This document shows positions 1 through 63,322 of a DNA stretch of 64,000 nt, one piece after another. The notes under the pieces were generated by a model. The model was not told where the DNA came from and did no database searches. It saw nothing but the letters and a program-made list of their open reading frames with translations. A program made the position numbers and the translations under genes. The number at the start of each line of letters is the position of its first letter. Positions within the stretch are counted from its first letter, which is position 1. Source of the DNA: Candidatus Cloacimonadales bacterium (GTDB lineage: Bacteria > Cloacimonadota > Cloacimonadia > Cloacimonadales > JAFGVF01). Location: positions 1,940,554 to 2,004,553 of the forward strand of contig OY829950.1 in NCBI GenBank assembly GCA_963692475.1, written 5' to 3'.

Positions 1-1989
1 ATTTTTCATTTCTAAGCTTGTTTTTCCTACTCCTCCTGCACTTGAACTCTGATTAGAATTATCTATATCCCAAAATGATGCGGTTACTGTAGTAGAGTTT
101 ATCGATCTCCCTATTAATCCTCCTGCCCAAACACTAGCATTTACTTTACCTGTACTGTAACATCTGCTAATATTAGAAGCCCAACCTTGACCGATAAAAC
201 CACCACTGCTTTGACGATTTTCATTATAATTGATAGGTTGAGTTTCATCTGTAACATCTCCATGACTGTAGCAGTTGGAATAGGATGAAGAGCCCGACAT
301 ACCTGAGAATCCTCCTAAAATAGATTCACCGAATAAACTCCCTCTACTATAGCAATTATTAAAGATGGAGTTGGAACTATTTCCATTAAAGATTCCAATT
401 TCAAAGACTCCAGATATATTTGCATTGCTATTACAATGATTGAATACTGAAGAGTTTAAACATCTACCTACTATACCTCCAGACTTGGAAAAACCAGAAA
501 CTGTCCCAGAAAAAGAGCAATATTCAACTACTGTATTATCTGTAAACCCTATCAAACCTCCAATCGTATCACCGTAAATAGTTCCAACTACATTGCAGTT
601 AAGCACTTGAGAATTGCTGGTTCTTCCGATTAATATTCCTCCTTCAACGTCTGTATAGATTGTAGCCTCATTTATATTGAGATTCTTGATCACGGAATTA
701 GTAACATATCCAAACAAGCCTACACATTGCACGTTTAGAGTACCTGGATCAAAGTTAATCAGTGTTCTATCATTCCCGTCGTAATTGCCTGAAAATGGCT
801 GTGAATTGTTTCCTATTGGAGTAAAACTCTCATTTTGTGCAGTTAAATAAGAATATAATTCAGTAAAATTAATATCTGCAGTTTGGATAAAATGTTTATC
901 CCAAATAGATTTGTTCTGACTTAACCACCATAGATGATGAATTGAATCGATTTGGTAGGGAGCTTGACTTGTTCCTGCTCCAATAGTCGTTATATGAGCA
1001 AATCCTTCCCATGCAAGAAATGGATAACCTGAATTAAAAAATGGATTAATTCCCCAATAGCCGGAATCACCATTTTCTTCCTCTACTTCGAAATCCCAAC
1101 CGGCTTGAAAATAGGTTTGGTAAACTTTCATTTCATCTGAAGTTTTTCCTATTCCTCCATCACTAAACAAGATATTAGAAGTCTGTGTATCCCAAAAACA
1201 GCCACTTATTGAAGTTAAGTTGGCATTGTTTCCGACCAGTCCTCCTGTTTCCGCTGAACCTGTTACTATTCCGGTACTATAGCAGTTAGTAATTGAGCCA
1301 TTATTGGTATATCCGGCTATACCACCTGTCTTATTGTTGCCATTTATCTCTCCCCAATTATAGCAATTGGCAATATGTCCTGCAAAATTTCCTCCAGCAA
1401 TTCCGCCTGCTCCCAAATTATCTCCCTCTATGTTTCCATTATTTAAACTGCAGGTAATATAGGAAGAGATATTAAGACCCATAATACCTCCAACGAAACT
1501 GCTAAAACCTTTGAGATTACCTGATGTGGAGCATTCTGAAACACTTGTGGAATCTGAAATTCCGACAAGAAATGATACACTGCTATGGCCTGTAATGTTG
1601 GCATCTGATAAAATAATTTTATTTAAAGTAGCCAAATCTGTAGAACCAAACAAACCGATAAAATCGCTACTTGGCCTATTGATGTAGAGGTTGAGAATTG
1701 CATATCCGTTACCATTGTAGGTCCCGGTAAAACTTACTAGTCCATCTCCTATCGGTAAAAATCCTTCTCCTGTATTCCAGTTATAGGTATCAGATGCATC
1801 AATTTCTGCAGTCTGAATATAATGCTTATCCCAACTTGAGCTGTTACTGCTAAGCCATAATAAATTATCTAAAGTGGTAATTTGATAAGGATTTTCTATT
1901 GTACCGCTTCCTAAGGGGGCTACTGCATCTGCTAATAGTAAAACTGTAAAAAGTATAAAAAAAACAAGCAATAAATTTCTAATAGTCAT
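1..1989 (-). CDS. GLUG-motif repeat secreted/surface protein, N-terminal 663 codons (C-terminus lies beyond base 1)
   Basis: Absent from ORF track (no stop in window). Hand translation of the minus strand from ATG at 1989 (GGAG RBS upstream) is open to base 1: MTIRNLLLVFFILFTVLLLADAVAPLGSGTIENPYQITTLDNLLWLSSNSSSWDKHYIQTAEIDASDT... It has a signal peptide and repeated GLFG / GGLVG / GGIAG / NCYSTG units typical of GLUG repeats. A second module start reads PYQIDSIHHLWWLSQNKSIWDKHFIQTADI. Confidence 0.8.
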   Translation of the reverse strand, partial: MTIRNLLLVFFILFTVLLLADAVAPLGSGTIENPYQITTLDNLLWLSSNSSSWDKHYIQTAEIDASDTYNWNTGEGFLPIGDGLVSFTGTYNGNGYAILNLYINRPSSDFIGLFGSTDLATLNKIILSDANITGHSSVSFLVGISDSTSVSECSTSGNLKGFSSFVGGIMGLNISSYITCSLNNGNIEGDNLGAGGIAGGNFAGHIANCYNWGEINGNNKTGGIAGYTNNGSITNCYSTGIVTGSAETGGLVGNNANLTSISGCFWDTQTSNILFSDGGIGKTSDEMKVYQTYFQAGWDFEVEEENGDSGYWGINPFFNSGYPFLAWEGFAHITTIGAGTSQAPYQIDSIHHLWWLSQNKSIWDKHFIQTADINFTELYSYLTAQNESFTPIGNNSQPFSGNYDGNDRTLINFDPGTLNVQCVGLFGYVTNSVIKNLNINEATIYTDVEGGILIGRTSNSQVLNCNVVGTIYGDTIGGLIGFTDNTVVEYCSFSGTVSGFSKSGGIVGRCLNSSVFNHCNSNANISGVFEIGIFNGNSSNSIFNNCYSRGSLFGESILGGFSGMSGSSSYSNCYSHGDVTDETQPINYNENRQSSGGFIGQGWASNISRCYSTGKVNASVWAGGLIGRSINSTTVTASFWDIDNSNQSSSAGGVGKTSLEMKN

Positions 1990-2411
1990 TTTATTCTCCT
2001 TTTCTTAAACCGGAATCCGTACTTAGTGTTATTAATTTTATGTTTATAAGTATTGTTACTAACCAATGATCATAATCATTTCCACCAGTAAATTATTCTA
2101 ACAGTAATTTAACTACTATTTTCAATTATAGTATGCTTATATCTTCAAATACTAATATGTTACTATATTTTTTAATTGTCAAGGAAATTTTATATTAGTA
2201 AGTCAGATGGTAGCAGAGACTGTTCAACCATCAAGCCAACTCCTGAATAGTTTATCCTTAAAGACGTCGATAATATTGCACATCTTCATGTTTGCTTGAC
2301 ATTTTAATATATTTTTTTGTTAGTAATCTTGCCTCTTCAGTGGGATGTTAGGCTCTTCAGTCGGACGGTGGAGATTCTCTCCGCCCCAAGCGAAGCTTGG
2401 AAATTCATAAA

Positions 2412-2493
2412 ATCCCGAAGGGATGAAAATATAATAGGCAGTGCTCGAAGACACTGTTACAGATAACAAAGAAATATGAGCCCTAGAGGGGCT
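2412..2493 (+). repeat. Three-hairpin module, copy 1 (left arm inside MITE family 4 copy P)
   Basis: H1 ATCCC-GAA-GGGAT 2412-2424. H2 CAGTG..CACTG 2439-2456, preceded by ATAATAGG. H3 AGCCC-TAGAG-GGGCT 2479-2493. Confidence 0.7.
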
Positions 2494-2599
2494 ACAATAT
2501 TCATTTCGTCAGATTTATTTTTGTTACACTTATCATCACATAGCAAACATGTGAAATGTAATTAACCCTTTATCTACATGATCAGTAAGAGGTATTTTC

Positions 2600-2682
2600 G
2601 CCCCTCCGGGGCTTAGGTTCCTGTGAAGATTCGGGTACAGTGTCTTTGAACACTGCCTATTATATCTGCATCCTTTCAGGAT
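2600..2682 (-). repeat. Three-hairpin module, copy 2 (right arm, inverted relative to copy 1)
   Basis: H3 GCCCC-TCC-GGGGC 2600-2612. H2 CAGTGT-CTTTGA-ACACTG 2638-2655. H1 ATCCT-TTC-AGGAT 2670-2682 (paired C-G to T-A change relative to copy 1). Confidence 0.7.
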
Positions 2683-3072
2683 TTAAGAGGCATTCTTCCA
2701 ATATCCGGAATTTAGACCTGGATAAAACTATAAGTCAATTCCAAAAGTATAGGGTAATTAATAATAAATGTGCACTATTTGAGCTCTATTAAAATCTAAA
2801 GTATTAAATATCAGTTGATTAATTTGAACAGTCTCTGGTAGCCCCTTCTGTCGGACAGTTGCCTTTTCTGTCTACAAAGATTTTCCTCCTCTTGAACTTA
2901 GGAACATGGTTGGTACTTAATATCCCTAGATAGTTTTCGAAAAGAGAGTTTTAGGCATAAGTCTTTTTATGGGTCTAAATTGTTAATATATGGATTTATG
3001 TATAATTATACCAAAGGTATTTAAAAATGACTATAGAAGTAATCATTGACATATAATCCCCATTTCGAATCA

Positions 3073-3101
3073 TTGACTCACATGCTAACCTTGGCTATAG
3101 T
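3073..3101 (+). promoter_or_regulatory. sigma-70-type promoter candidate for the 3131 gene
   Basis: TTGACT (3073-3078), 17-nt spacer, TATAGT (3096-3101), about 30 nt upstream of the ATG. Sequence match only. Confidence 0.4.
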
Positions 3102-3130
3102 AGCCACAACATTATTAAAGGAGAAAAAGT

Positions 3131-6100
3131 ATGAAAAAAACTATGTTAATGCTAGTGATGATGATTTTAACGATAACATCATCATTTGCCCAATTTATTG
3201 AAATCGGAGATAACGAGTCAACTGCTAGTACAACTACAGTTCCTTTCTCAGGTTTATGGGATTATGGTTGGTCAACAGCTGTTATTCCAGGAGAATTAAT
3301 AGGTGATGCAATTGAAATCAACTCAATTAGTTTTGATGTTTTTAACTCACCCGCTAATTATGAAATGCTTACACAAAAAGTGTATATGCGTCACACCCAA
3401 GTAGATACTGCAAGTGTTCAGTATCCTGATCCTGAAAACAATGGCTATACTTTAGTGTATGATGCAAATGTTACATGGAATGGACAAGGCTGGCAAGGAA
3501 TTGACTTTGCTACAAACTTCAATTATGATGGTTCATCCAACTTAGAAATTGTTTGGGAGAACTGGGATGGAGATTATGTATCAGGTTACCCAACATTCAG
3601 AAAAACTGCTGTAGATTACAATGTTGCTGCTTATAAAAGAGCAGACAATGATTTCCCAGCTGTTGCAGGTGCTTTTACTCAAGAGTATCCTAATATCAGA
3701 TTAGGTTTTGTTGCTGAAGGTTACCCTGGAACTCCTCAGTTGTTAAGCCCTATTGATTTAGCTACAGGTTTAGAAAGCTCAATTGAATTAACTTGGTCTT
3801 TAGGTGAAAATACTGTTAATGTAGATGTTTATCTATCTGATGTCAGAGAAGATGTAGTCTCAAATAACACTGACGCTAAAGTTGTTGATGCTCTTAATGT
3901 TACTGCCTTTAGCACAAATGTAGAATTAGGAACATCTAACTTCTGGAAAGTAGTTGCAAGAAATGCAGAAGGCATTACTGTTGAGTCTGCAATTTATACT
4001 TTTGCAACAAGATTTCCTGATAACGTAGTTGTTACTGAAATAGGTACATCAAGCACTGCAAACATTCCTTATAATCCATATTTTAAGTATGGATATTCTC
4101 AATCAATCTATTTAGCTGATGAAATAACTTTAACAGGTGCAATTGAAACTATCGCTTTTGATTTCAATGGTAACTCAGCATTTGAAGATGATGTTGTTGT
4201 TTATATGGGTACTACTGATGTTCAAGAATTTGCTTCAACAGAATCATGGCTTCCAGTAACTGAATTAACTGAAGTGTATAACGGTGTTCTTTCCTTAACT
4301 GCTCAAGCTGGTTGGGCTATGATTGACCTTGATACAGCTTTCAACTTCGATGGTACTTCAAATCTTGTTGTAGCTATGGAAAAAAATACAGGTGTATATA
4401 CTTCAAGTAGTGATTTTTTCTTCACACATAATGTAGATAATAACAGATCATTAAGACATCAAAGTGATAGTGTTGATGCCGATCCAACTACTCCTCCTGC
4501 AGGAACATTATATACTCAATTACCAAATACTTTATTCGTTTTTGGTCAAGCTGTTACTCCACTCCCAGTAGTTACTGATTTAGCAGCTACTGTTACAGAT
4601 AGTGATGTAGTTCTTACTTGGTCTGCTCCTGAAGTTGGTGAAAACACTTTTGTAGAATATCAAATCATTAAAGATGGTGCAGATTTAGCTACTACAGAAG
4701 AATTAACTTATACAGATTCTGACCTCGCTGATGGTGCTTATGAATATGCAATAAAAGTTGTTTATACAGAAGGTACTTCAGCTTTATCAAATGTAGTTAC
4801 AGCGACTATCTCAACTACTCCGGTAGAAGTTGAAGCTCCTGTTAACTTAACAGCTTCTGTGTCCGGTCAAGATGTTACTTTAAACTGGTTAGCTCCAGGC
4901 ACAGTGCTTCCTGACGAAATTACAGAAGGTTTCGAAGAATCATTCCCTCCAACAGCTTGGACTCTTAATGCTACAAATACTACAGCTTCTTGGGAACAAT
5001 ACGGTACTGTTGAATTCTCAACAAGTACTGTTACTCCTACCGAAGGTGAATACCAAGCAGGTGTTCAATGGGATTATTCAGCTCAAAACGAATGGTTAGT
5101 AACTTCTGAAATCTCTAATGTTACTAATTTAACCTTCGATTATTATGGAAGTTTAGGTTCAGAATATGGTGATAACTACTATGTAAAAGTATCTACAGAT
5201 GGTGGAAACAACTGGACTCCTGTTTGGAATGCTTCCGATTTTGCTGAAGGTGAAAATAACTATGATACTCCTGTTTCTATTGATTTATCAGCTTATGCTT
5301 CTGAGACAATTAAAGTGGCTTGGAACTTTGTTGATGGTGATGGACAAGGATTATGGTGGTCAACATTCATTGATAATATAGTATTTTCTAATAATGGAAG
5401 AATTCTTGCTTTTGATGCTTCTGAGTTAAAATCATTCTCAAAAGCTGAAAAAACTTTTACTAATCCAAGAGTTAGAAATAATAGATTTGCTAAAAATCCT
5501 AACTATGTTTCAACAAGAACTACTCGTGAATTAACAAGTTATAAAATCTATCGTAATGCTACTGAAATTGCAACAATTTCTTCAGATGTATTAACCTATA
5601 CAGATACAGAATTAGATTTTGCTAACTATGATTATTATGTAACAGCTCTTTATACTGAAGGTGAATCTAATCCTTCAAACACTGTTACTGTATCTATTAT
5701 AGATCCTGCTACAACTTTACCTCCAATGAACTTAACAGCTGATGTTAATAATTCAGATGTAGAGTTAAACTGGGAAGCCCCACTTGATTTATCAGAAGGA
5801 GCTTGGATTACTAAGGGTGCTGAAGAAAACAATGATGGAATTGGTATTAATGATGCAGCTGAATTTGGTGTAGCTCATAAATATACTCAAGATGAATTAG
5901 TAATGTATCAAGGTTTATACATTAATTCAATCAAATTCTTCCCTCGTGAAGCAACAGCTACTTATACAGTTACAGTATGGGGTGGAACTACTGGACAGAC
6001 TGTTCTTTACAGTTCAGAAGTAGTAGATTTTGTTAATGAAGCTTGGAATGAGCACCAATTAACTAACCCTGTTGCTATTCCTGCTTCAGGACCTCTTTAT

Positions 6101-7456
6101 ATTGGTTATATGATTGATACTCCTACAGGTTTCCCTGCAGGTTGTGATGCTGGTCCTGCTGTTGAAGGTGGAGATCAAATTCACTTTGCTGGTGAAGCTT
6201 GGGATGCACTTTCAGCTGTAGCTACTCCAAATATTAACTGGAACATTCAAGCCTTTGTTTCTCCTGAAGGAGCTGATAGAGCTTCTAACACTCTTATTGC
6301 TATGGCAAATAAAGCTATTAAAGCAACTAACAACAATGCTCAATTTCTTGCTGGAAACTTAAATCCAATTCTATCAAGCAGATTTAACATTGAAAGAGAT
6401 GTTACAGCTTACAAAATCTATCGTGATAATGAAGAAATTGCTGAAGTTGCTTCAGATATCTATACTTATACAGATAGTGCTTTAAGTAATGGAAGTTATG
6501 TTTATCATGTTACAGCTATGTATGGTACTGCAGAATCTTTAAATTCTAACAGCGTAACTGTTACAGTAAATAATTCTAATCCTGAAGATGTTATCATTGC
6601 AGATTCTTTTGAAAACTATGCAGACTTCGCCTTACAGTTCGGAGACTGGACACTTGTAGATGGCGATTTATCTCCAACTTATGGCTTTGATGGAACTACA
6701 TTCACAAATGCTGAAGCAATGATGTCTTACATAGTATTTAATCCTGCTATGACAAGTCCAGCTCTTACTGATGTAAGTTATCAAGCTCCTGATGGAAGCA
6801 AATATCTTGCCAGTTTTGCAGCTGTAACTCCTTCAAATAACGATTGGTTAATTTCTCAACCTTTCACTCTTGGTGATGAAGGTGAAGTAACTTTCAAAGC
6901 AAAATCTATTACTAATCAATATGGTTTAGAAAGATTCAATGTCTTAGTATCTACAGGTTCAACTAACCCTAACGACTTCACATCAATCTCAGGTGCTTCT
7001 TATACTGAAGCTCCTATTGCATGGACTAGTTATATGTATGGTTTAAATAATTATGCTAACCAAACTATCAGAGTAGCTATTCAATGTGTATCAAATGATG
7101 CATTTGTCTTCATGCTTGATGATTTCAAAGTTGTTTCAGCTGGTGGAACAGATAATGATGATACTACAGCTCCTGTATTAACTAATGCACTTAAAGGTAA
7201 CTACCCTAATCCTTTCAACCCTGAAACTACTATTTCTTACTCAGTTGAAAAAGCAGGAAAAGTTACTCTTGAAGTCTTTAATATCTTAGGACAGAAAGTA
7301 AAAACTCTTGTTAATGATTCAAGAAATGCAGGAAATCATAATGTCGTTTGGAATGGTAAGGATGATGCTGGAAGAGCTGTTTCCTCAGGTGTTTACTTCT
7401 ATCGTATGAAAAATGGCAACTATTCAAAAACAAACAAGATGATCTTAATGAAATAA
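3131..7456 (+). CDS. Large (1441 aa) secreted adhesin-like protein with T9SS-type C-terminal sorting domain
   Basis: AGGAG RBS and signal peptide [21 protein letters not shown]. Three Fn3-like repeats end in ...Y.VTA.Y..GES.PSN.VTV. Two segments ([14 protein letters not shown]..., [22 protein letters not shown]...) resemble cleaved-adhesin / choice-of-anchor-J domains. The C-terminus [16 protein letters not shown]...[21 protein letters not shown] is a T9SS CTD. Confidence 0.85.
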
Positions 7457-7504
7457 TACTGGGAACGCTTGCATCTTGCAGGCAATCTTTGACAAAAAAT
7501 AACA

Positions 7505-7540
7505 AAAAAGCCTCGCTAAAGCGGGGCTTTTTGTTTTTTG
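7505..7540 (+). terminator. Rho-independent terminator
   Basis: GCCTCGC-TAAA-GCGGGGC hairpin (7510-7527) followed by TTTTTGTTTTTT. The same 26-nt sequence recurs at 10202-10228. Confidence 0.8.
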
Positions 7541-7848
7541 TGAAGAAATGTCACACTTTTTCTTTCCTATGTTTTTTTTAATCTTGCTATTTATGGACTT
7601 AGAAAGAGTTGGCTTATCAATCTATGTGCTACCATAAGATATATTAAAAGAACATTCTGAATAAATAAAAACATAACAAACAGTGAGTTAACCTTAAAAG
7701 ATAGCCTTGACAATTATTTCAACAAATAATCTAAATTTAATTTATTTTTTCTTGACATCTAATTTTATTTTTATAATATATGTTTAGTAGTTTAAGATAT
7801 TTAATCTCAATTTACAAAACATAATTGTTAAAATCTTTTGGAGGAACA

Positions 7849-10146
7849 ATGAAAAAGACTTTTTATGTAGTAATATTGTTTGTCCTTACAATATCACTAT
7901 ACTCCATTCCCGATACTTTTATGAATATGCAAAACCTTGAAGGGGTTAGTTTAAAGCCTTACCAGTCACAAGCTCGCTGGCAAGCAAACTATGAGTTTTC
8001 AACTGTTCCTATCACTCTTTCGCCGACAAGACATGATTATTTCCCTGGAAGTTATGGAAGTAATCCTATTATAAGGGCTGAAACTCCCTCTTTAAATGGG
8101 CACTGGTTTACCTTCCAAGCGACATGTTATGATTATCCTTATACCCCTTTAAGAGTCTATAAGGGTTTCATTAATACTGATGCAGAGATCGAAGCGTTTC
8201 AACCTTTCGGTATTGATGATTTGTGGGAGAGTTCTCCAGCAATTGCCTTAAGTGAAGGGAAAAGACCATTTTTTTCCTATTTAGTTGATAAGGATAGCAA
8301 TCCAGGTCCCTATTATGATCATGATAACCAAAATTATGACTTAGCCTTTGGTTATGATGCTGTTATTGGCGGTATAGCTTTGGGAATGCATTCCGACTTA
8401 TTTTCTATTTTTGACGGTGAGTTAGAACTAAATATTGAGGGAGAAGATTATCAAATAAATCAACTTTTGCATCCAATAGTTCAGATTGGACCATCTCCTT
8501 TAGCTAATCATCAAAGAATTTATATCTGCGGACAAAATAAACATTCTGAAACAGACTATTTATGCTCTAATCCAGTAATTTTCTACAGTGATTTTACAGA
8601 AAGTGATATGGAATACCAGTTGATATTTGGTAATACTGACTGGCAATTTATAACTATCCCTGAGCTTAATGAATGGAATGTATCAACTACAGAATGCCGA
8701 AAACCAGTAATGAGTTTCAAAGTTATAAACAGTAAGTTATATTATATTGGCTACCATGAAGCTGCCGACTTTCAAATTGACCATAAAAACATAATTAATG
8801 AAGCATCGCTTGATGTTTTTGTTTGTGATAATTATGGTGAAGGTGAATGGGAAAGATACTCAATTTGGGATACCTTTGATTCTTATAACCCTAACTTTGT
8901 TAATCCTACTGGTTTCCACAAAGGAAGGCAAATGATTAAAGAATATTTTGATACAAGTAGTCAAGATTTCACAGATGAAGATATGTTTATCGGAATAGGA
9001 CAATCTAGTCACTTTAACGTAGGCGTTGATAATTATGGAAGACTACATATACCTGCTCTCTTCACACAAAAAACTTACTCAGGATATTATTACCCTGAAT
9101 TACATACTGTTAAAGATATAATATTTAATTGTTATAATAATGAGTTTAGCGTTTCTGAGGTCTATCCCCAAGCTAGAGTTGGAGAAATTGATGTTAGTGA
9201 TAACACTGAGTCTGTTAGTGACGAGTTACCTTGGTTATGGTGGGATAGTGATAACGATGGCTACTATGATGAAGTGCTTGATGACGGTACTTGGGATGGT
9301 ATAGATGATAACATTACTCAAGCTGATACAGATTATTGGGGCATGCCAGTGTTAAAAACTCTTTGGCCCTTCCAATATTGGGATGAATCAGCTTTACCAG
9401 ATGGGAATACACTTCCTTACCTTAACCATATTATGATTACTGATGCTAGTGACAATGGGGTTATGGCTATGGTATGGCATGATACTCAGAAATCTAGAAA
9501 CTATAACAAGTATCCTGATGATTATTCAGACTTAGCACCTTTTGCAGAGACTATAGAAACAATGATTAGTGTATCATCAAATTTTGGTTATTCTTGGTCA
9601 GACCCTATATCCCTTAACAATATTGATACTCCTGAATTAGCAGGACAAAACCCTGCCTTTGTCTATCCTGCAAACCAACTTGACTATATCACCTTTACTT
9701 ATACAGGAAACATAATGAGACTATATCTTATGTACAATGATGATACATCTTATGGTTCATCTGTACTGGGAATTGGACCTGAGACAGTAGGCTCTATTAA
9801 ATATGCTGCTTTGGATCTTGATATAGAAAACATGCCAGTAAATAATCTAAGCAGTGATATTACTCCGAGTATGACTACCTTAGTGCAAAACTATCCAAAT
9901 CCCTTCAACCCTGAGACAACTATAGCTTTTAACCTTACAAAACCTGATAAAGTTACCCTTGATATCTATAATATTAAAGGACAAAAAGTTAAGACTCTTC
10001 TAGATGATTATATTGAAGCTGGGAATCATAGCCTTGTTTGGAATGGTAGAAATGAGAATAATCAAGAAGTTGCTTCAGGAATCTATCTTTATAATATCAG
10101 AAATAGTAAATTTTCTTCTACCAAGAAAATGATTTTGATGAAATAG
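7849..10146 (+). CDS. Secreted protein with BNR/Asp-box-like motif and T9SS-type C-terminal sorting domain (paralog of 34237..36513)
   Basis: ORF track starts at TTG 7825. I prefer ATG 7849 (MKKTFYVVILF, GGAGGA RBS). Asp-box-like [27 protein letters not shown]...KKMILMK. Long identical blocks are shared with the 758-aa protein (LNEWNVST, EASLDVFVCDNYG, TESVSDE.PWLWWD, DDGTWDG). Confidence 0.85.
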   Translation: MKKTFYVVILFVLTISLYSIPDTFMNMQNLEGVSLKPYQSQARWQANYEFSTVPITLSPTRHDYFPGSYGSNPIIRAETPSLNGHWFTFQATCYDYPYTPLRVYKGFINTDAEIEAFQPFGIDDLWESSPAIALSEGKRPFFSYLVDKDSNPGPYYDHDNQNYDLAFGYDAVIGGIALGMHSDLFSIFDGELELNIEGEDYQINQLLHPIVQIGPSPLANHQRIYICGQNKHSETDYLCSNPVIFYSDFTESDMEYQLIFGNTDWQFITIPELNEWNVSTTECRKPVMSFKVINSKLYYIGYHEAADFQIDHKNIINEASLDVFVCDNYGEGEWERYSIWDTFDSYNPNFVNPTGFHKGRQMIKEYFDTSSQDFTDEDMFIGIGQSSHFNVGVDNYGRLHIPALFTQKTYSGYYYPELHTVKDIIFNCYNNEFSVSEVYPQARVGEIDVSDNTESVSDELPWLWWDSDNDGYYDEVLDDGTWDGIDDNITQADTDYWGMPVLKTLWPFQYWDESALPDGNTLPYLNHIMITDASDNGVMAMVWHDTQKSRNYNKYPDDYSDLAPFAETIETMISVSSNFGYSWSDPISLNNIDTPELAGQNPAFVYPANQLDYITFTYTGNIMRLYLMYNDDTSYGSSVLGIGPETVGSIKYAALDLDIENMPVNNLSSDITPSMTTLVQNYPNPFNPETTIAFNLTKPDKVTLDIYNIKGQKVKTLLDDYIEAGNHSLVWNGRNENNQEVASGIYLYNIRNSKFSSTKKMILMK

Positions 10147-10201
10147 TATCTTGCTGGGGAGAATGATAAATTAACAAATAGAAATATTAATGGAAATTAA
10201 T

Positions 10202-10228
10202 AAAAGCCTCGCTAAAGCGGGGCTTTTG
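10202..10228. terminator. Bidirectional rho-independent terminator between convergent genes
   Basis: AAAA-GCCTCGC-TAAA-GCGGGGC-TTTT, identical to the hairpin at 7505-7540. It lies between the stops at 10146 (+) and 10254 (-). Confidence 0.75.
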
Positions 10229-10253
10229 TAATTTATTAACTAATTTTGTCTAT

Positions 10254-10874
10254 TTACATATTTATCTGTATATCTTTTATCTGACTATATTTTTCTAAGT
10301 GCTCTCTAATCTCTTCAGCCACATTCTCACGATATTTATCAAAGGAAGGTATTTCCACATCAATAATAGCAACTCCGTCATCAAATCCTACATATTTGAC
10401 CATTTTAAGAGTAACAATATCCTCTCCGACTTGGGGGTAAATAACATGTTTTAACTCAGCAATAATTGTTTCTTTGGAGAAGTCTTCAACTTTTCTCATA
10501 CCATGTGATATCTGGTAATTTTTGATTGCTTCATGAAGTGTGTCGGCAGCAAGAACTGAGCAGTGAGCCTTTGTTGGTGGGAGTCCGTCTAATTCCTCCA
10601 TAGCATCTCTCCAGGTTATTGCTAAAGCTTCATCAAGGGTCTTGCCCATTGCCATATCTGTTATCATAGAACCGGTTGCGATATTAGAAGCACATCCGTA
10701 AGATTTAAACTTAACATCTTCAATTACTTTTGTTTCTTCATTGATTTTTAAATAGACTGTTACTTGATCTCCACATGCTGGGGAACCTTCTGTTGCAACA
10801 GCATCTGCATCTTTTATCTCACCCACATTATGTGGCTTCATAAAATGGTCTAAAACTTTTTGTGAATATTGCAT
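10254..10874 (-). CDS. nifU: Fe-S cluster scaffold, IscU/NifU N-domain fused to a DUF59 (SufT/MIP18-like) C-domain
   Basis: Three scaffold cysteines in SPACGD, KSYGCASN and KAHCSVLA. The C-terminal ~70 aa (IYPQVGEDIVTLKMVKYVGF...) resembles DUF59. Confidence 0.8.
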   Translation of the reverse strand: MQYSQKVLDHFMKPHNVGEIKDADAVATEGSPACGDQVTVYLKINEETKVIEDVKFKSYGCASNIATGSMITDMAMGKTLDEALAITWRDAMEELDGLPPTKAHCSVLAADTLHEAIKNYQISHGMRKVEDFSKETIIAELKHVIYPQVGEDIVTLKMVKYVGFDDGVAIIDVEIPSFDKYRENVAEEIREHLEKYSQIKDIQINM

Positions 10875-10882
10875 AATTTCCT

Positions 10883-12070
10883 CTATTTTATTTTATTTTC
10901 TTGATATAATGGACTTCTTCTTCTGAGTTCAACAACAATCTCTTTCAATTTATCAACTGTAATGTCTAACTCTTCTTTAGTTGTAAATTTGCTAATAGTG
11001 AATTTCATAGAACCATGGGATTGCATATGGTTTTTACCCATTGCCATAAGAACATAGCTTGGTTTAAGACCTTGAGAAGCGCAAGCACTACCTGTAGCAG
11101 CTGTAATGCCCTGTAAATCAAGCATCATACCCATAGCTTCCCCTTCAATATAATCTATCGAAACATTAATATTATGACAAGCTCTTCCTTCGCCACTAGC
11201 TCCATTTAGTTCAACATCAGTTATCTCTGTCATTAGTCGATTAAGAAGATAATTAGATAAATCTCTAAGCTTTTTAGTAGTTGCATTCAAATCCGCGAAT
11301 GTTATTTCAGTAGCCTTAGCAAATCCAGCAAGAGAGCCAATATTTATGCCCCCGGTTTCTAAATTATCAACTCTGTTAACTCCATGAACGACTTGAGCAA
11401 GTGGAGTTTTTGTTCTTTTATATAAGAAGCCGACACCTTGAGGTCCATGAATTTTATGAGCAGAAACAGACATAGTATCAATACCTACTTTATTCATGTC
11501 CATAGCAAATTTGCCATAAGCTTGACCAGCATCAACATGCATATAAATTTTATGATCTGCATCTTGGATAACTTTAGTATATTCTTCAATAGGCTGTATT
11601 GTACCAACCACGTGATTAACCCAAGTTGTTGAGAAAAGAATTGTATCTGGGCGAATAGCTTCTTTGAGTTTCTCTGCTGATACTAAACCATATTCATCTG
11701 CTTGAAGGTAAGTAACCTCAAAGCCACTTTTTTCGAAGAAAGCATAGTTAGTAAGAATATCAGGATAATCAATTACTGAACAGATAATATGAGTTCCTTT
11801 TTGTGAATTTGCCATTAATATGCCCTTTATCGCTATATTATTAGCAGAAGTTCCTCCACGAGTAAAATGAATTTCATCTGCTTTAGCATTGATGGTAGTG
11901 CTAAAAACGGATTTAAATTCTTGTAATTTAGAATTAATCTCTTCTCCGGCAGTAAAGAAATTTGCTGGAAACCAATACTCATTTTCCCAATATTCTCTCA
12001 TAACATCAAATATTTGGGGGTCTGGTTTTGTTGTTACGCAGTTATCTAAGTAGATCCTCTTATGTTCCAT
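10883..12070 (-). CDS. nifS: Cysteine desulfurase (NifS/IscS, class V aminotransferase)
   Basis: PLP-lysine motif SVSAHKIHGPQGVGFLY and catalytic loop ATGSACAS. Sits immediately upstream of nifU. Confidence 0.9.
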   Translation of the reverse strand: MEHKRIYLDNCVTTKPDPQIFDVMREYWENEYWFPANFFTAGEEINSKLQEFKSVFSTTINAKADEIHFTRGGTSANNIAIKGILMANSQKGTHIICSVIDYPDILTNYAFFEKSGFEVTYLQADEYGLVSAEKLKEAIRPDTILFSTTWVNHVVGTIQPIEEYTKVIQDADHKIYMHVDAGQAYGKFAMDMNKVGIDTMSVSAHKIHGPQGVGFLYKRTKTPLAQVVHGVNRVDNLETGGINIGSLAGFAKATEITFADLNATTKKLRDLSNYLLNRLMTEITDVELNGASGEGRACHNINVSIDYIEGEAMGMMLDLQGITAATGSACASQGLKPSYVLMAMGKNHMQSHGSMKFTISKFTTKEELDITVDKLKEIVVELRRRSPLYQENKIK

Positions 12071-12073
12071 ACC

Positions 12074-12490
12074 TTACTCCTTATCTATTCTATTTTTTAT
12101 ATCTTGTAATGTGATTGTACTAAGATAAGTCTTGATGTTACCATATATCTCATGCCATAATAGTTTATACTGACAATTCTCAACCTGGCAATACTCAAGC
12201 TCTATCTTACTTCTTTCGCAACTTACTTCATAAGGATGATTTTCTACAATCTCCATAATCTTACCTAAAGCAATATCTTTTGAAGGGATATTTAAATAGT
12301 ATCCACCTTTAGAACCAGAAACACTATCTATAATAGAACTTCTTTTTAATTTCCGAAACAGCTGTTCTACATATTTCTTAGGTAAGTTTTGCTCTGTGCA
12401 AATTTCATTTATCGACTTTAAGGAATCTTTACTCTCGCTAAGAGTAACTAAAGCTCTTACTGAATACTCAGTCTTTGTAGTTAGTTGCAT
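12074..12490 (-). CDS. Rrf2-family transcriptional regulator (IscR-like)
   Basis: N-terminus MQLTTKTEYSVRALVTL is the Rrf2 winged-helix signature. Three clustered Cys (SCERSKIELEYCQVENC). First gene of the nifS-nifU operon. Confidence 0.85.
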   Translation of the reverse strand: MQLTTKTEYSVRALVTLSESKDSLKSINEICTEQNLPKKYVEQLFRKLKRSSIIDSVSGSKGGYYLNIPSKDIALGKIMEIVENHPYEVSCERSKIELEYCQVENCQYKLLWHEIYGNIKTYLSTITLQDIKNRIDKE

Positions 12491-12624
12491 TTTATTTCCT
12501 CATTTCTTAGTAATCATATACTAATTTAGTAGGAATTAGTTTTTTGGCAAGTTTTTTTTCGATATTTTTTTCTTGGGTAATGGATAAATTGTTTGCGTTA
12601 GGGTTATATGGTACATAAAAAAAA

Positions 12625-12730
12625 ATGCCAGGCTACCGGTTGCACACTCTAAGCACCCCTTAATGCTGCTTCATTCCTGACCTGACATGGTTCGAGGGTT
12701 AAAGTTGCACCGGACCTGACTAAGTCAAAA
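12625..12730 (-). ncRNA. ffs: Signal recognition particle RNA (small bacterial 4.5S type)
   Basis: The minus strand reads ...GUCAGGUCCGGUGCAAC...GUCAGGUCAGGAAUGAAGCAGCAUUAAGGGG...GUGCAACCGGUAGCCUGGCAUUUUUUUU. The domain IV motif resembles E. coli CAGGUCCGGAAGGAAGCAGCC with a paired C-G to A-U change flanking the GGAA loop. The terminal helix closes CAGG/CCGG/UGCA, followed by a U-run. Ends are approximate. Confidence 0.75.
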
Positions 12731-13047
12731 TGTTTTTAAGACTATATTGTGTCAAGAAAAAGATTGAATCCAGTCACACTGCTAAGATTTGAGCTATAAA
12801 AATCACAGATATTTATAGGTATAAGCAAGGATAAAATCCCTCTTTTTAAGCTAATTTTATTAATTTGATTCATTTGTTTAGAAAAGTTAATAGTTTATGG
12901 AAGGTAAATTTCCTAATACAATAAATATCTCTTGACATAATAAATGAGAATGAATTATTTAATAAATTATTAAGAAAAATATTGATAATTCACTATATTT
13001 TTCAATTTAGATTATATCTATAAACAAAACAACAAAGGAGAAAAGTT

Positions 13048-13527
13048 ATGAAGAAATTTTACATTATTGGCATTCTGCTAATAACATTAGTGGTTTTTGC
13101 AGGTTGTGACAAAAAACAAGCCCAAGAAGAAGCTAAAGGACAAGAAGAAAAACAAGAGAAAACAGTTCTTCAGGTCATGGATGAGTATGAAAAAGAAGTG
13201 ACTGATTGGTTCAACAAGGAAGTTGTTAATGCTGAAGACATTCAAGCTATCAATGAGAAAATTCAAGAAATGAAAGAGAAAGTTTCTGAAGAAGGTATTA
13301 CTGAAGAAACTAAAGAAAAACTTGAAAGCTTAGTGAATAAACTTGAAGATTTAAAGGCTAAGACTGCAGAAAAAGTTGATGGAATGAAAGAAAAAGCTGA
13401 AGAAATAGTTGATGATGTCAAAGATAAAGTTGAAGACAAAGTAGACGATATGAAGGATAAAACTGAAGAAAAAGTTAATAATATGAAAAATAAGGGTGAA
13501 GGAAGAGTCAAAGCTATTCGCAGCTAA
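13048..13527 (+). CDS. Small Lys/Glu-rich lipoprotein, function unknown
   Basis: GGAG RBS and lipobox LVVFAGC. Repetitive charged coiled-coil-like sequence (DKVEDKVDDMKDKTEEKV). Confidence 0.7.
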   Translation: MKKFYIIGILLITLVVFAGCDKKQAQEEAKGQEEKQEKTVLQVMDEYEKEVTDWFNKEVVNAEDIQAINEKIQEMKEKVSEEGITEETKEKLESLVNKLEDLKAKTAEKVDGMKEKAEEIVDDVKDKVEDKVDDMKDKTEEKVNNMKNKGEGRVKAIRS

Positions 13528-13557
13528 ACTATAAGTTATAATTAAATGAATATTTTC

Positions 13558-13603
13558 CGATGGAATATAACATATTTTTTGTTATATTCCATCGTTTTAT
13601 TTT
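13558..13603 (+). terminator. Rho-independent terminator
   Basis: 14-bp stem CGATGGAATATAAC / GTTATATTCCATCG followed by TTTTATTTT. Confidence 0.8.
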
Positions 13604-13638
13604 ACTGCACAGAAAACGTTTTCTCAATATTACTCTTA

Positions 13639-13802
13639 AACCCAAATAATGCAATGGTTCTTTGAGAATAGCACTATATTCTTTTGCAAAAGTAACTTAC
13701 ATAATTCCTCCGAATATATATATTATATGCGTCAGAATTCTGCAAGCTATTTTGCTAAAAGAATTTGCACTCTTCACTAAAGCTCTATTGCACTATTAGG
13801 GT
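13639..13802 (+). mobile_element. MITE family 3 (TIR ACCCAAATAATGCA...), copy a
   Basis: Ends AACCCAAATAATGCAATGG ... CTATTGCACTATTAGGGT. The reverse complement is full-length alignable to 62839-63002. No ORF. Confidence 0.7.
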
Positions 13803-13828
13803 AAAAAATAGATAATCTCTGCTATCAA

Positions 13829-13908
13829 AGCTAGTGCTAAGGTAAATCTTTGTTTTAAATATACAGGGTCTAACTAACCCTGCATATTAAATGACATCCC
13901 TTCGGGAT
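13829..13908 (-). repeat. Three-hairpin module, copy 3 (free-standing, H3 degenerate)
   Basis: H2 CAGGGT-CTAACTA-ACCCTG 13864-13882. H1 ATCCC-TTC-GGGAT 13896-13908. The H3 position is reduced to AGC-TAGT-GCT. Confidence 0.6.
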
Positions 13909-14104
13909 TAGATAGATTGTCAAGTACCAATATAGTGGACACCTTTTTTATGTATCCTGAGTCATGTATCTCTTTTGAAAAATGAGACATTTACTCATAC
14001 TTTTGAGTTCTGTTGTCGACTCCATTTTGCATTCGTAATTTATTCGCATTTTTCAAAAGAAAATACATTCAGCTGTGTATCTGTTGATCATCTGGTAACC
14101 TCTT

Positions 14105-14890
14105 TTAATGATTTGCAAAATCATTTGGAGTAAAATACCCTAAACTTTTGTGAAGTCTCTGAGAGTTATAGATCATTACTGCATCTTTAGTAGCTTTTTT
14201 AAGACTTTCCATAGTGCTAAATGTCCGTTTTAATCCAAATTCATGCTTCATTGTACAATTTATCCTTTCAGCAATAGGGTTGTCATAGCATTTGCCATCA
14301 CCAGTCATACTAATCTTTATACCATGCTGTTTCAGAAGGTTAATAGTCTCATTACTTGTATATTGAGAACCATGATCTGAGTGGTGAATAAGATCGTTAG
14401 TATTATTAACATGTTTTAGCTGTCTTTTTAACATCTTTATATGATTATTAGTCAGCATATTAGAGGAAACTTCATAATCCAATATCTGTCTGGTATGCAT
14501 ATCACTTAGCAAAAACAAATAGTAAAATCCTTTGTCTTTAGAAATATAGGTAATATCAGTTACCCATACTTGATTTTTTCTCTCTACTATCATATTTTTA
14601 ATTAAATTAGGATATACTTTACTACCATCTGATATTGAAGTTTTGCAAAACTTTTTCTTTTTCCTTATTAACATATTTTGGTCTTTAAGAAGGTCATTAA
14701 GGTGCTTTTTTCCAATCTTTAGACCATCATTCTCCAGCATTTTCCATAATTTAACAGTGCCAACATAAGGCTGTGTTTCTTTGTACTGTTTCACTTTGGA
14801 GAGACACTGCAAGTCATTATGAGCGATGTGGAAGGCACTTTGAAGATATTTATAGTAACCTGACTTTGAAACATTTAATATTGAACACAT
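14105..14890 (-). CDS. IS3 transposase OrfB (DDE integrase core)
   Basis: LNVSKSGYYKYL (HTH_21-like), W.TDITYI, HSDHGSQYTS, DNP.AER..CT.K.E, all rve-type DDE motifs. One aa differs from copy 2. Confidence 0.9.
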   Translation of the reverse strand: MCSILNVSKSGYYKYLQSAFHIAHNDLQCLSKVKQYKETQPYVGTVKLWKMLENDGLKIGKKHLNDLLKDQNMLIRKKKKFCKTSISDGSKVYPNLIKNMIVERKNQVWVTDITYISKDKGFYYLFLLSDMHTRQILDYEVSSNMLTNNHIKMLKRQLKHVNNTNDLIHHSDHGSQYTSNETINLLKQHGIKISMTGDGKCYDNPIAERINCTMKHEFGLKRTFSTMESLKKATKDAVMIYNSQRLHKSLGYFTPNDFANH

Positions 14891-14895
14891 ATGTT

Positions 14896-15318
14896 TTATT
14901 CCTGATCTTTTAAAAGCCTTGATACTAAGATCTTTTGAGACTCTTTGGAGAAACCTGAATTTATGTTTTTTTTTAAATCAATACCTTTCTCTTCAGCCAT
15001 AAACTTAATATACTTTTCAAGGATTTCGTTTGAGAACTGGCTATCCTCTAAAGCCCGTTTTAACTGCTTATTTTCCTTTTTTAAAAGGTCTGCTTCTCTA
15101 GTTTCACGTTCTGTCATAATCATCACCTTTTTCCCTATTTTGTCGTTCATTCCATAACTCGCTAACCATCTACTTACGGTACTTTCTGAAACATTATATA
15201 TTCTACTAGATTCAGCTTGAGTTAAATCTCCTTGCTCAATCTCGTCAACAATTTTCATTTTAAAGGTTTCACTGTAGATTCTTTGCATTTTCGGTACCGT
15301 ACTTTTTTTCTTTAACAT
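14896..15318 (-). CDS. IS3 transposase OrfA (HTH)
   Basis: YSETFKMKIVDEIEQG...ESSRIYNVSESTVSRWL is the IS3 OrfA helix-turn-helix. A leucine-zipper-like region follows. Confidence 0.9.
   Translation of the reverse strand: MLKKKSTVPKMQRIYSETFKMKIVDEIEQGDLTQAESSRIYNVSESTVSRWLASYGMNDKIGKKVMIMTERETREADLLKKENKQLKRALEDSQFSNEILEKYIKFMAEEKGIDLKKNINSGFSKESQKILVSRLLKDQE
14966..14974 (-). other. Programmed -1 frameshift site candidate (A9 run on the coding strand)
   Basis: T9 on the plus strand equals A9 in orfA. Equivalent to 22810-22818 in copy 2. Confidence 0.6.
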
Positions 15319-15560
15319 GTCTTGCTCCTAGTTTAATATTTACTAGTCCACTTATATGGGACGACACAGATATGTCAGATAGTCTATTGGCGGTTTATTA
15401 GGGGTTTATTGGGCATCTATTGGCTATCCACTAAGCTGAAAACCAAGAGACACCTGATAGTGAAGATATATAAGTTCGATACATAAAATACGATCCTTTA
15501 GAAAAGAACTATGGATTAATTAAAAGACATGCTTGCTTAATATTGTTTTAAATTATATTA

Positions 15561-15833
15561 GGCTCTCTCCAAAGTAGAGTGGGTTAGTTTTATCATGAAA
15601 CTTGTTTTTACTGAAAGGAGGTGTTAACATCATCAAAAAAAAACGAAATATTATCGCCCTTCCAGGGCTAAGATAAATTTAGGTTTCATATATACAGGGT
15701 CTAACGAACCATGCCTATTAGATTAACATCCCTTCGGGATTATATGTGTATTAACTTCCATAAATTGACTATATATTTGTTAACATCTTACGACAATATT
15801 TATCATATTACCCACTCTACTTGAGATAGAGCC
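15561..15833 (-). mobile_element. MITE family 2 (23-bp TIR GGCTCTCTCCAAAGTAGAGTGGG), copy A
   Basis: GGCTCTCTCCAAAGTAGAGTGGG (15561-15583) and CCCACTCTACTTGAGATAGAGCC (15811-15833). Carries one three-hairpin module. No ORF. Confidence 0.7.
15656..15740 (-). repeat. Three-hairpin module, copy 4 (inside MITE family 2 copy A)
   Basis: H3 GCCC-TTCCA-GGGC 15656-15668. H2 CAGGGT-CTAACGA-ACCATG 15695-15713 (one mismatch). H1 ATCCC-TTC-GGGAT 15728-15740. Confidence 0.65.
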
Positions 15834-16003
15834 GAATATACTATAATAAAAGTCTCTTTTTTACCACATACTTTAACTTGAGCCTTTCCTTTTGGTAAAA
15901 TTCTAAATTCTGCATTTTTTAGTTACTATTTTTGAAAAACTCTTATAATAAAATTAACTTGCCAAAAATAAGTAAAATGATAAGTAAAGTATAGGAGGAG
16001 AAT

Positions 16004-18784: not shown

Positions 18785-18786
18785 GC

Positions 18787-22200: not shown

Positions 22201-22465
22201 AGAGAGAAAGATGGATTTAGCCACCGAAACCACCGAAAACACTGAAAAGAAAAAGAGCTTTCACACGAATTAACTCGAATTAATCCGAATTTCACAAATA
22301 AGATGAAGAAAGAAGGAAATCTATCCAGATGTCTTCGCTAATACATTCTCAGAAGCTGTAGCGAAGTATGATGGCAACGAAGATGACTGGGTGTTAGATA
22401 TGTTGTGGCTGATTGTGTGTCGTCCCATATAAGTGGACTAGTAAATATTAAACTAGGAGCAAGAC

Positions 22466-22888
22466 ATGTTAAAGAAAAAAAGTACGGTACCGAAAATGCA
22501 AAGAATCTACAGTGAAACCTTTAAAATGAAAATTGTTGACGAGATTGAGCAAGGAGATTTAACTCAAGCTGAATCTAGTAGAATATATAATGTTTCAGAA
22601 AGTACCATAAGTAGATGGTTAGCGAGTTATGGAATGAACGACAAAATAGGGAAAAAGGTGATGATTATGACAGAACGTGAAACTAGAGAAGCAGACCTTT
22701 TAAAAAAGGAAAATAAGCAGTTAAAACGGGCTTTAGAGGATAGTCAGTTCTCAAACGAAATACTAGAAAAGTATATTAAGTTTATGGCTGAAGAGAAGGG
22801 TATTGATTTAAAAAAAAACATAAATTCAGGTTTCTCGAAAGAGTCTCAAAAGATCTTAGTATCAAGGCTTTTAAAAGATCAGGAATAA
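22466..22888 (+). CDS. IS3 transposase OrfA (HTH)
   Basis: 140 aa, identical to copy 1 except V/I in SEST(V/I)SRWL. Confidence 0.9.
   Translation: MLKKKSTVPKMQRIYSETFKMKIVDEIEQGDLTQAESSRIYNVSESTISRWLASYGMNDKIGKKVMIMTERETREADLLKKENKQLKRALEDSQFSNEILEKYIKFMAEEKGIDLKKNINSGFSKESQKILVSRLLKDQE
22810..22818 (+). other. Programmed -1 frameshift site candidate (A9)
   Basis: orfB is in the -1 frame relative to orfA. The orfB frame is closed by TGA at 22804-22806 and opens at 22807, immediately before the A9 run. A slip would give ...GIDLKKKHKFRFLERVSKDLSIKAFKRSGIKHMCSILNVSKSGYY... Confidence 0.6.
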
Positions 22889-22893
22889 AACAT

Positions 22894-23679: not shown

Positions 23680-23954
23680 AAGAGGTTACCAGATGATGAA
23701 CAGATACACAGCTGAATGTATTTTCTTTTGAAAAATGCGAATAAATTACGAATGCAAAATGGAGTCGACAACAGAACTCAAAAGTATGAGTAAATGTCTC
23801 ATTTTTCAAAAGAGATACATGACTCAGGAGACATAAAAAAAGATGTCCACTATATTGGTACTTGACATTGCCTCTTATGTAGGACGGTAGAGATTGACTC
23901 TCCAATAAAGTTCTACTACACTATCTTGGTTAAAATATCCCTCTCAAGGTCTGT

Positions 23955-37124: not shown

Positions 37125-37255
37125 TTTTATTATAATATATTCATTGTATAATAGAAAGTAACGAGTTTAAGTTTACTGTTTAGAGTAAGTTTTGCTTGTA
37201 AATAATACTTTAATAATATAATTTTAAAACAATATTAAGCAAGCATGTCTTTTAA

Positions 37256-40313: not shown

Positions 40314-40346
40314 ATTTCCTCAATAATGATTAGTGTTATAGATTTC

Positions 40347-63288: not shown

Positions 63289-63322
63289 ACAATATTTATT
63301 TATTTTTGTGCTAGTATATTAT

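Follow-up and report, generated by a model that had tools for sequence, protein, structure and literature searches.

What is the short repeat that recurs seven times in the intergenic DNA of a 64 kb stretch of a Cloacimonadota genome, and why do its hairpins persist? The stretch (contig OY829950.1, positions 1,940,554 to 2,004,553, from a Candidatus Cloacimonadales bacterium; hereafter, the window) had previously been read from its letters alone, and the original prediction described a module of three hairpins, H1 to H3, with compensatory substitutions in the stems, common to unrelated families of transposable elements of the miniature inverted-repeat type (MITEs). Our analysis indicates that this module is very probably the conserved internal core of non-autonomous MITEs in Cloacimonadota intergenic DNA, and the alignments argue that its three hairpins are maintained by paired substitutions. 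The best explanation overall, which we favour, albeit with reserve, is that the module is a selected cargo of the MITEs that folds as a single strand and, as the likeliest of the modes of action considered, would act in MITE transcripts.

Module architecture and the support for its hairpins

The module was surveyed in 387 kb of DNA, comprising the window and sequence from three to four Cloacimonadota genomes and two metagenomes. A covariance model (R1), built from 47 full-length copies (alignment A2) and searched by cmsearch, gave 85 matches at E<1e-6 in this material; within the window there were exactly seven, with E values of 1e-8 to 1e-18, far above chance. These are the seven copies that had been predicted, all at their predicted places, and they align at 77% mean column identity (alignment A1). 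The 15-nt core pattern alone is found at chance level in the window, with 13 occurrences against 9.2 expected when three mismatches are allowed. Scans of viral contigs with the module pattern, and of metagenomes with a pattern requiring GGATG, returned no matches; a looser metagenome pattern identified six loci, namely, four real modules (L050, L051, L052 and L054) and two chance matches, one of them within an SSB gene. In keeping with the original prediction, which could place the module in no familiar family, an Rfam scan of the whole window at gathering scores matched only the signal recognition particle RNA (bacterial small type, RF00169, 73.4 bits, at 12623-12721 on the minus strand), and the best hit of a permissive scan of positions 2150-3150 had an E value no better than 5. 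A scan for tRNA and tmRNA found none.

The predicted order of elements is correct. H1 has the form ATCC(C/T)-NNA-(G/A)GGAT and is joined to H2 by a linker ending in AT(A/T/C)TAATAGG, of which TAATAGG is nearly invariant. In H2, CAG(G/T)G(T/C) pairs with AC(C/A)CTG across a loop of 6-7 nt (TCG..AG) that is also nearly invariant, and a spacer of 10-26 nt, conserved in neither sequence nor length, leads to H3, GCCC(N)-NNA-(N)GGGC. The loops of H1 and H3 are all 3 nt long (GAA, GGA, GCA, AGA, CAA or ACA): their first two bases vary, and the third is A in every intact copy. Three hairpins stand as predicted; the length and constancy do not, as the module measures ~90 nt rather than ~85 nt once a conserved GA(T/C)AATA tail beyond H3 is included, and two of the window copies are damaged, H3 being lost at 13823-13908 and H1 degenerate at 63317-63407 (Table 1).

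Support for the stems comes from 83 distinct copies drawn from the same sources (alignment A5). Standard pairs occupy 95.6% of the stem cells, compared with 30-51% when the 3' partners are slid by one to three columns. Changes on both sides are seen at 8 of the 16 pairs, against 3.2 ± 0.9 in column shuffles, and none of 500 shuffles reached 8. Covariation is strongest in H1, where pair 5:9 is CG55/UA17/UG9, pair 4:10 is CG72/UA6 and pair 1:13 is AU78/GC3; pair 31:43 of H2 is GC47/UA35, and the innermost pair of H3, 82:119, is UG36/CG24/UA10/AU1. The individual exchanges that had been named, CAGGGT/ACCCTG for CAGTGT/ACACTG in H2 and ATCCC/GGGAT for ATCCT/AGGAT in H1, are real, and the pairing, shuffle and slide controls together bear out a three-hairpin module with compensatory substitutions. 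Moreover, the minimum-energy fold of single window copies consists of H1, H2 and H3, with z scores of approximately -3.3 for four of six on the sense strand.

Only the hairpins and the H1-H2 linker are conserved; most of each arm has diverged, as has the spacer. This argues for selection and favours the earlier suggestion that it is the structure that is selected. The opposing explanation, that the module has no function and hitch-hikes as a passenger whose hairpins are kept by template switching in quasi-palindromes or by gene conversion, is improbable. It would accommodate the near-identity of copies within genomes and their difference between genomes, as expected of recent bursts or concerted evolution, the two-state nature of most both-side changes (GC/UA at 31:43), which could be few events, and the tolerance of nested insertions and truncated copies. 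However, the succession of H1, linker, H2 and H3 is common to subtypes A, B and C, whose arms and spacers (10-26 nt) cannot be aligned; template switching cannot maintain the invariant positions outside the stems (TAATAGG, the third base of both triloops and the AG in the H2 loop); and UG at pairs 5:9 and 82:119 implies that some changes passed through a wobble rather than occurring on both sides at once.

Two further observations concern the module sequence. In modules of subtypes A and B (2421-2437 and 2657-2674 in the window, and their equivalents), the 3' arm of H1 and the linker read ATG-NNN-ATA-TAA-TAG, i.e. a start, two codons and tandem stops (MKI* or MQI*); this frame is probably incidental, because it is lost in most subtype C copies. 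Additionally, a divergent relative of the module at L021 139-263 (35 bits) has H1 ATCCC-AAA-GGGAT, H3 AACCC-TGAA-AGGGTT and an H2 lengthened to CCAGGGTC/GACCCTGG that encloses an extra hairpin; the module family is, therefore, probably wider than pattern-based sampling shows.

Table 1. Module copies, MITEs and associated repeats in the window
Feature	Position	Strand	Length	cmsearch (bits)	Fold z	Remarks
Module copy, subtype A	2412-2499	+		93.7	-3.27	H1 ATCCC-GAA-GGGAT, H2 CAGTGC..ACACTG, H3 GCCCT-AGA-GGGGC; left arm of P
Module copy, subtype B	2593-2682	-		96.5	-3.39	H1 ATCCT-GAA-AGGAT; right arm of P, facing copy 2412-2499
Degenerate module copy	13823-13908	-		52.1		H1 and H2 intact, H3 lost
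Module copy, subtype C	15649-15740	-		89.5		Central in family-2 MITE; H2 loop 7 nt, TCGTTAG; one broken H2 pair (CATGG)
Module copy, subtype C	36948-37038	+		82.3		Central in family-2 MITE
Module copy, subtype A	63207-63294	+		87.7	-3.32	In Q; H3 GCTCT-AGA-GGGGC with two T-G pairs
Module copy, subtype B	63317-63407	-		91.9	-2.20	In Q; H1 degenerate (ATCATCAAAGGAT)
Family-4 MITE P	2216-2835		620 bp			Terminal inverted repeats 2216-2228, 2823-2835; from repeat search and homologous bounded elements
Family-4 MITE Q	63027-63563		537 bp			Left end decayed (GAAACTCTTCAAT), right end exact; older member
Truncated further left-end fragment after Q	63571-63621
Family-2 MITE	15561-15833		273 bp			Ends GGCTCTCTCCAAAGTAGAGTGGG at 15561-15583, 15811-15833
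Family-2 MITE	36853-37124		272 bp			Ends 36853-36876, 37102-37124; from sequence, repeat search and alignment
Third MITE-like family	13639-13803		~165-190 bp			Ends AACCCAAATAATGCA.TAGA.CTTT
Third MITE-like family	37254-37446		~165-190 bp			Ends as above
Third MITE-like family	~62840-63002		~165-190 bp			Ends as above
Third MITE-like family, single end	40346-40370
Third MITE-like family, single end	60429-60453

The MITEs that carry the module

All of the module copies are intergenic, and, apart from those at contig edges, 50 lie near the ends of one MITE family (family 4), 7 near those of another (family 2) and 12 without recognised ends. The carriers are 272-640 bp long, with flanks that are unique outside the terminal repeats. 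The original prediction had named as a potential refutation the possibility that every copy is a passenger of a single MITE lineage: almost every copy does ride in a MITE, but at least two lineages are involved, and end repeats and alignments substantiate its view that two families with unrelated ends have the module in common. The MITEs insert into one another and into AT-rich intergenic DNA, as illustrated by locus L013, in which a family-2 element is nested in a family-4 arm.

Family-4 elements (~540-640 bp) are delimited by 13-bp terminal inverted repeats, GAGACTGTTCAAT / ATTGAACAGTCTC, and 8-bp target-site duplications, and they hold two modules, one per arm, inverted and both reading inward. 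When nine loci of the complete chromosome OY782499.1 were compared over ±450 nt, the similarity proved to be bounded sharply by GAGACTGTTCAAT and its inverse, ~610-630 bp apart, with unrelated DNA outside; the terminal repeats are present in P and Q of the window and at eight loci. The duplications at the OY782499.1 loci include TTATCATA, CTGATACT, CCTCGTT(G) and ACAGGCTG(G). Five of approximately nine intact copies retain a duplication, the others being decayed or rearranged; P is among the five, with seven of eight bases matching between TGGTAGCA (2208-2215) and TGGTAGCC (2836-2843), i.e. TGGTAGC(A/C). P contains no open reading frame (ORF) of more than 50 aa, and comparison of its left arm with the reverse complement of its right arm reveals identity at the 12-bp tip, across H1-linker-H2 and in H3, and little elsewhere. 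No recognisable target duplication was found for Q. The centre between the facing modules of Q, previously put at ~35 nt, measures ~22 nt between module ends. Across the module copies in general, which are not themselves the unit of repetition, the 70 nt preceding H1 sort into a small number of conserved classes. A recurring unit, CTCTTC(T/A)GTCGGAC followed by a variable hairpin (GGTGGAGA-TTC-TCTCCGCC or, in the same position, GCGGATG-CCCA-CATCCGC), is found both inside family-4 arms and alone (2355-2386 and 2843-2875 in the window, and many loci, e.g. L002 1430-1510 and L015 7330-7400).

Family-2 elements are shorter (~270-300 bp), with 23-bp ISL3-like ends (GGCTCTCTCC..AGAGTGGG), an 8-bp duplication and a single, central module. 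The duplication is seen in two of six copies, the others being decayed or rearranged: it is perfect for the MITE at 36853-37124 (TTTTATTA at 36845-36852 and 37125-37132; eight of eight bases), and no clear one was found at 15561-15833. The DNA between ends and module, previously described as not alignable for this pair, is in fact diverged but partly alignable. At L022 2365-2720, family-2 ends enclose a wholly different interior with no module; therefore, the module is cargo and not a transposase site. More generally, its presence between ends of two unrelated kinds, and the existence of family-2 ends that lack it, indicate that it is not the binding site of one transposase.

Terminal repeats, together with a duplication fixed at 8 bp, point to mobilisation of the MITEs in trans by DDE transposases. 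This tells against the earlier idea of a repetitive extragenic palindrome (REP) set, arranged as in bacterial interspersed mosaic elements (BIMEs). A REP/BIME-like, REPIN-like or IS200/IS605-type end, in which hairpins in single-stranded DNA are recognised by a Y1 (RAYT/TnpA) transposase, would explain the inverted doublets of hairpin units in P, Q, L002 and L035 and their mosaic arrangement, and the proteobacterial repeats are likewise hairpin-forming, intergenic and found as inverted doublets and mosaic arrays. It is, however, scarcely credible: Y1 elements make neither terminal inverted repeats nor 8-bp duplications, the module is internal, with 95-370 nt separating it from the element ends, a GTAG-type tetranucleotide is not conserved, and no Y1/RAYT domain was detected among the 20 window ORFs scanned, which include all neighbours of the copies. 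REPs are single palindromes of 20-40 nt, moved by RAYTs and lacking terminal repeats or duplications, whereas here the hairpins are internal to DDE-type MITEs. An origin from an IS200/IS605 element, in which hairpins are subterminal and on one strand at both ends and in which terminal repeats and duplications are lacking, was rejected in the same way, as the modules are internal and inverted and their carriers have terminal repeats and duplications.

Candidate mobilisers differ for the two families. Published ISL3 ends start GGCTCTTCG, measure ~15-39 bp, and the family makes 8-bp repeats (PMC6305408, PMC11448079); family 2, with GGCTCTCTCC.. ends of 23 bp, a GGCTCT start and the TTTTATTA duplication, has the features of ISL3-derived MITEs such as that of Microcystis (PMC6305408, PMC11448079). 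A contig of the same species (L048) encodes an ISL3 transposase (PF01610, 409 aa) within an intact element at 18871-20228 with ends GGCTCAAGTTCAAGTCTGGTGGAA. These match family 2 at 13 of 24 positions, being related but not identical, and the element has no module; therefore, it does not identify the cognate autonomous element of family 2. The same GGCTCAAGTTCAAGTCTGGTGGAA ends recur in the window as solo or MITE-like repeats (57422-57445 and 37696-37719, with 37445-37720 and 57137-57445), and, because they also bound the intact L048 element, ISL3 activity in this species is either current or recent.

The end of IS26 is GGCACTGTTGCAAA. Family-4 ends (GAGACTGTTCAAT) resemble it in having CTGTT in the same register, together with an 8-bp duplication, and differ in the tip, GA rather than GG, and in CAAT replacing GCAAA, the 'caa' being shifted by one base. 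The IS6 family, to which IS26 belongs, is characterised by a GG tip and cTGTt and caaa motifs in ends of 14-20 bp, and by an 8-bp duplication (PMC7986276); its members transpose by forming cointegrates, it counts only two listed MITEs, and no IS6 transposase was seen here. Because the tip and the 'caaa' motif differ, this possible relationship is a lead only. Among the 20 window ORFs scanned, the only transposase is that of an IS3-family element (rve and helix-turn-helix (HTH) ORFs), which was rejected as a mobiliser: its ends (TGTCAAGTACC...) show no relationship to the module or to the ends of either MITE family.

RNA or DNA: what the folded strand may do

The fixed third loop base, the linker TAATAGG and the H2 loop fit recognition of a folded single strand, RNA or DNA alike. 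A T-G wobble in one H3 had been taken as a hint of pairing at the RNA level. Among the 83 copies there are 51 G-U-type and 23 A-C-type cells, a difference that is not decisive because one innermost pair dominates each class (36 of the 51 at the innermost H3 pair, 16 of the 23 at the innermost H2 pair, leaving 15 against 7) and because the copies are not independent; the A-C-type cells of H2 would, in addition, be G-U on the opposite strand. On the aligned sequences, the invariant third loop base is a stronger sign of strand-specific constraint than the wobble pairs.

The favoured reading of the module as a selected, single-strand-folding cargo can be extended, tentatively, to a mechanism at the level of RNA. 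Both family-4 arms and the family-2 arm contain conserved boxes of TTGAC(A/T) or TTGTCG type that point into the module in the H1-to-H3 sense, the TTGAC(A/T) boxes being conserved across species in both arms. The module would be kept for what it does when single-stranded: the box in each arm might act as a promoter-like start into the module in the H1-to-H3 sense, and transcripts starting in or entering the MITE would take the form of several short hairpins in a row. Such a row could insulate the transcript, make it more stable or give rise to a small RNA, as has been described for other bacterial MITEs (PMC10969869). If the module does act as RNA, each of these genomes would have dozens of copies of a structured RNA that has gone unrecognised, next to the promoters of many genes.

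A number of observations weigh against this interpretation. Copies within a genome are near-identical, and much of the apparent covariation consists of few events inherited by many copies; moreover, alignment A5 was fitted to the model's own structure. The strand asymmetry of the wobble pairs is, as described above, not decisive. Promoter-like matches are barely above shuffled expectation (10 versus 7.0; 11 versus 5.5) in DNA that is AT-rich, and where the linker of subtypes A and B has a perfect TATAAT, that of subtype C has TTTAAT or TCTAAT. Read in the sense direction, H3 runs into GAUAAUA and not into a U tract and is, therefore, not a canonical terminator. Finally, no autonomous element with family-4 ends was found in the 387 kb sampled.

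A terminator scan weakly flagged, in the antisense direction, H3 of P and H2 of both P and Q, with weak tails CCTATTATAT and CATATTTCTT. Long-range pairing between facing A and B modules was considered as a conserved structure and rejected, because the facing modules of L002 and L035 differ in their H2 allele (T-A versus G-C), which keeps the local hairpins and would mismatch the long stem, and because family 2 has one module only. A linker TATAAT, or a self-contained promoter, was likewise rejected as a conserved feature, given its replacement in subtype C.

The last point bears directly on the idea that the module is a captured, free-standing small RNA gene, with the linker TATAAT as its -10 box, H1 in the promoter spacer, a start at H2 and a 3' end at H3, yielding an RNA of ~60 nt with a C-rich, single-stranded middle. 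The perfect TATAAT in subtype A and subtype B linkers, preceded in Q by a TTAAAA box 17 nt upstream (10 of 12 matches), the C-rich spacers of both subtypes (CCCAACC, CCCCCAC) and the precedent of MITE-borne small RNAs (PMC10969869) are all compatible with it. It is nevertheless quite improbable: subtype C keeps the module even though its -10 box is without the A that is essential at the second position, the -35 candidates are weak and differ between subtypes, the spacer is unconserved in sequence and length, and H1, which covaries most, would fall outside the RNA. A broader proposal, that the module has a function of its own as a structured nucleic acid (either a small RNA or a platform, of RNA or single-stranded DNA, for a host or transposon protein) and was captured independently by MITEs with unrelated ends, which then spread it through Cloacimonadota genomes, we consider unlikely. 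Were it true, the module would represent an undescribed RNA family, with dozens of copies in each genome, and a bacterial parallel to the short interspersed nuclear elements (SINEs) of eukaryotes, which disseminate a functional RNA core.

Could the fold operate in DNA instead? Hairpins might form in single strands at the replication fork or in a transposition intermediate, or the module might provide a bend or cruciform, in either case aiding the MITE by joining its ends or recruiting a host DNA-binding factor. C-GNA-G triloops make unusually stable DNA mini-hairpins, and the loops of H1 and H3 are all 3 nt long and end in A; the module is central in both MITE families, and the wobble data do not favour RNA over DNA. 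Against this, transposition of the ISL3 and IS6 types is not known to depend on hairpins inside the element, the family-2 ends of L022 work around an altogether different interior, the stems, at 5-6 bp, are too short for extrusion from a duplex, and the distance from module to end varies from ~95 to 370 nt, such that a role at the DNA level appears rather unlikely.

A duplex alternative would regard the hairpins as palindromic operators for dimeric DNA-binding proteins, spread by MITEs through promoter regions. H1 and H2 have dyad symmetry, which is preserved by symmetric changes, and, in a tally of adjacent gene ends, approximately two thirds turn their 5' end to the element. This is a modest excess, however, and no more than any intergenic insertion would give; furthermore, three different dyads would be needed, with half-sites of 5-6 bp and centres of 3-7 bp, and neither the invariant third loop base nor T-G intermediates are expected of duplex recognition. 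We regard operators as very improbable. Consistent orientation with respect to genes was also sought, and neither the A nor the B arm has a consistent direction toward them.

Relatives, gene context and associated repeats

Elements of this kind are already known; what is unusual is that one structured module with compensatory changes is shared by MITEs with unrelated ends. The BOX, RUP and SPRITE repeats of pneumococci are likewise short, non-coding, multi-copy, intergenic and modular, they cluster and nest, are moved in trans by insertion sequence (IS) transposases and are predicted to form stable RNA folds when transcribed (PMC3049150, PMC10969869). They belong to another phylum and have no sequence relationship to the present elements, in which, in contrast, the module is shared between unrelated terminal repeats and paired substitutions in the stems are demonstrable. 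The QMITE1 and QMITE2 elements of Coxiella burnetii are MITEs with terminal repeats, duplications of 7-9 bp and a core sequence; their transcripts fold stably, and the small RNAs Cbsr3, Cbsr13 and Cbsr16 arise from them (PMC10969869). Expression has, thus, been shown for QMITEs, and no core shared across families with different ends is described for Coxiella. A full-text literature search for Cloacimonas repeats or insertion sequences found nothing relevant, and the Cloacimonadota MITEs appear not to have been described previously. Bacterial MITEs have been little studied and Cloacimonadota is an uncultivated phylum; nature here provides, in the module, a clean way to test whether the core of a MITE is selected cargo or debris of a parent IS.

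The MITEs account for intergenic regions of unusual length (~1 kb) and repeat content: in the window, 1990-3131, 36513-37764 and 62791-63862 (1.1-1.25 kb) consist largely or mainly of nested MITEs. In the fragmented metagenome-assembled genome (MAG) JAEKNW01, module copies are often located at contig ends; because of this, we think that the repeats probably break assemblies and explain many of the contig breaks in Cloacimonadota MAGs. Exact-protein look-ups for the genes flanking P, Q and the copy at 36948 returned no matches.

Several genes of the window (3131-7456, 7825-10146 and 34237-36513) encode secreted proteins of large size whose C-termini have FlgD_ig and Por_Secre_tail (type IX secretion) domains, and a further such ORF runs off the left end of the window (1-1989, minus strand). 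These genes are partly paralogous: over stretches of hundreds of bases, their DNA is 72-75% identical. Several of them have MITE clusters upstream, as do housekeeping genes in other genomes.

The third MITE-like family of Table 1 interrupts modules between H2 and H3 in other genomes (L024, L040 and L044). A smaller insert of ~30 nt, with a conserved core (C)GTAGCTTTAGCGAAG, occupies the loops of hairpins in three distinct families of repeat: in H1 (ATCCCG/GCTTGTGAGGCGTAGCTTTAGCGAAGACTC/AAGGGAT), in H3 (GCCCCG/GCTAGTGAAGG.../AAGGGGC) and in the third MITE family (CTCTTC/GCCTGTGATACGTAGCTTTAGCGAAGTATTA/CTAAAG), where slashes mark the insert boundaries. It was located in L003 (6084), L019 (362 and 461), L020 (981), L022, L026 (270), L032, L036 and L052, and further in L004, L006, L007, L025, L026, L030 and L039; the window copies are without it. 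The bases beside the core are self-complementary and vary with the context, and the insert may be a tiny insertion that targets hairpin loops.

The IS3-family element, composed of a 140-aa HTH ORF and a 261-aa rve ORF, is present in two inverted, 99% identical copies (13921-15366 and 22416-23878) that bracket AddAB-like nuclease/helicase genes (16004-22200); the degenerate module copy sits 12 nt from the end of the first. A contig of the same species (L045/L048) is 99.6% identical to the window over 4836-15996 and diverges on both sides. Beyond 15996 it continues with type I restriction-modification genes, which suggests a rearrangement or a difference in gene content next to the IS/MITE cluster.

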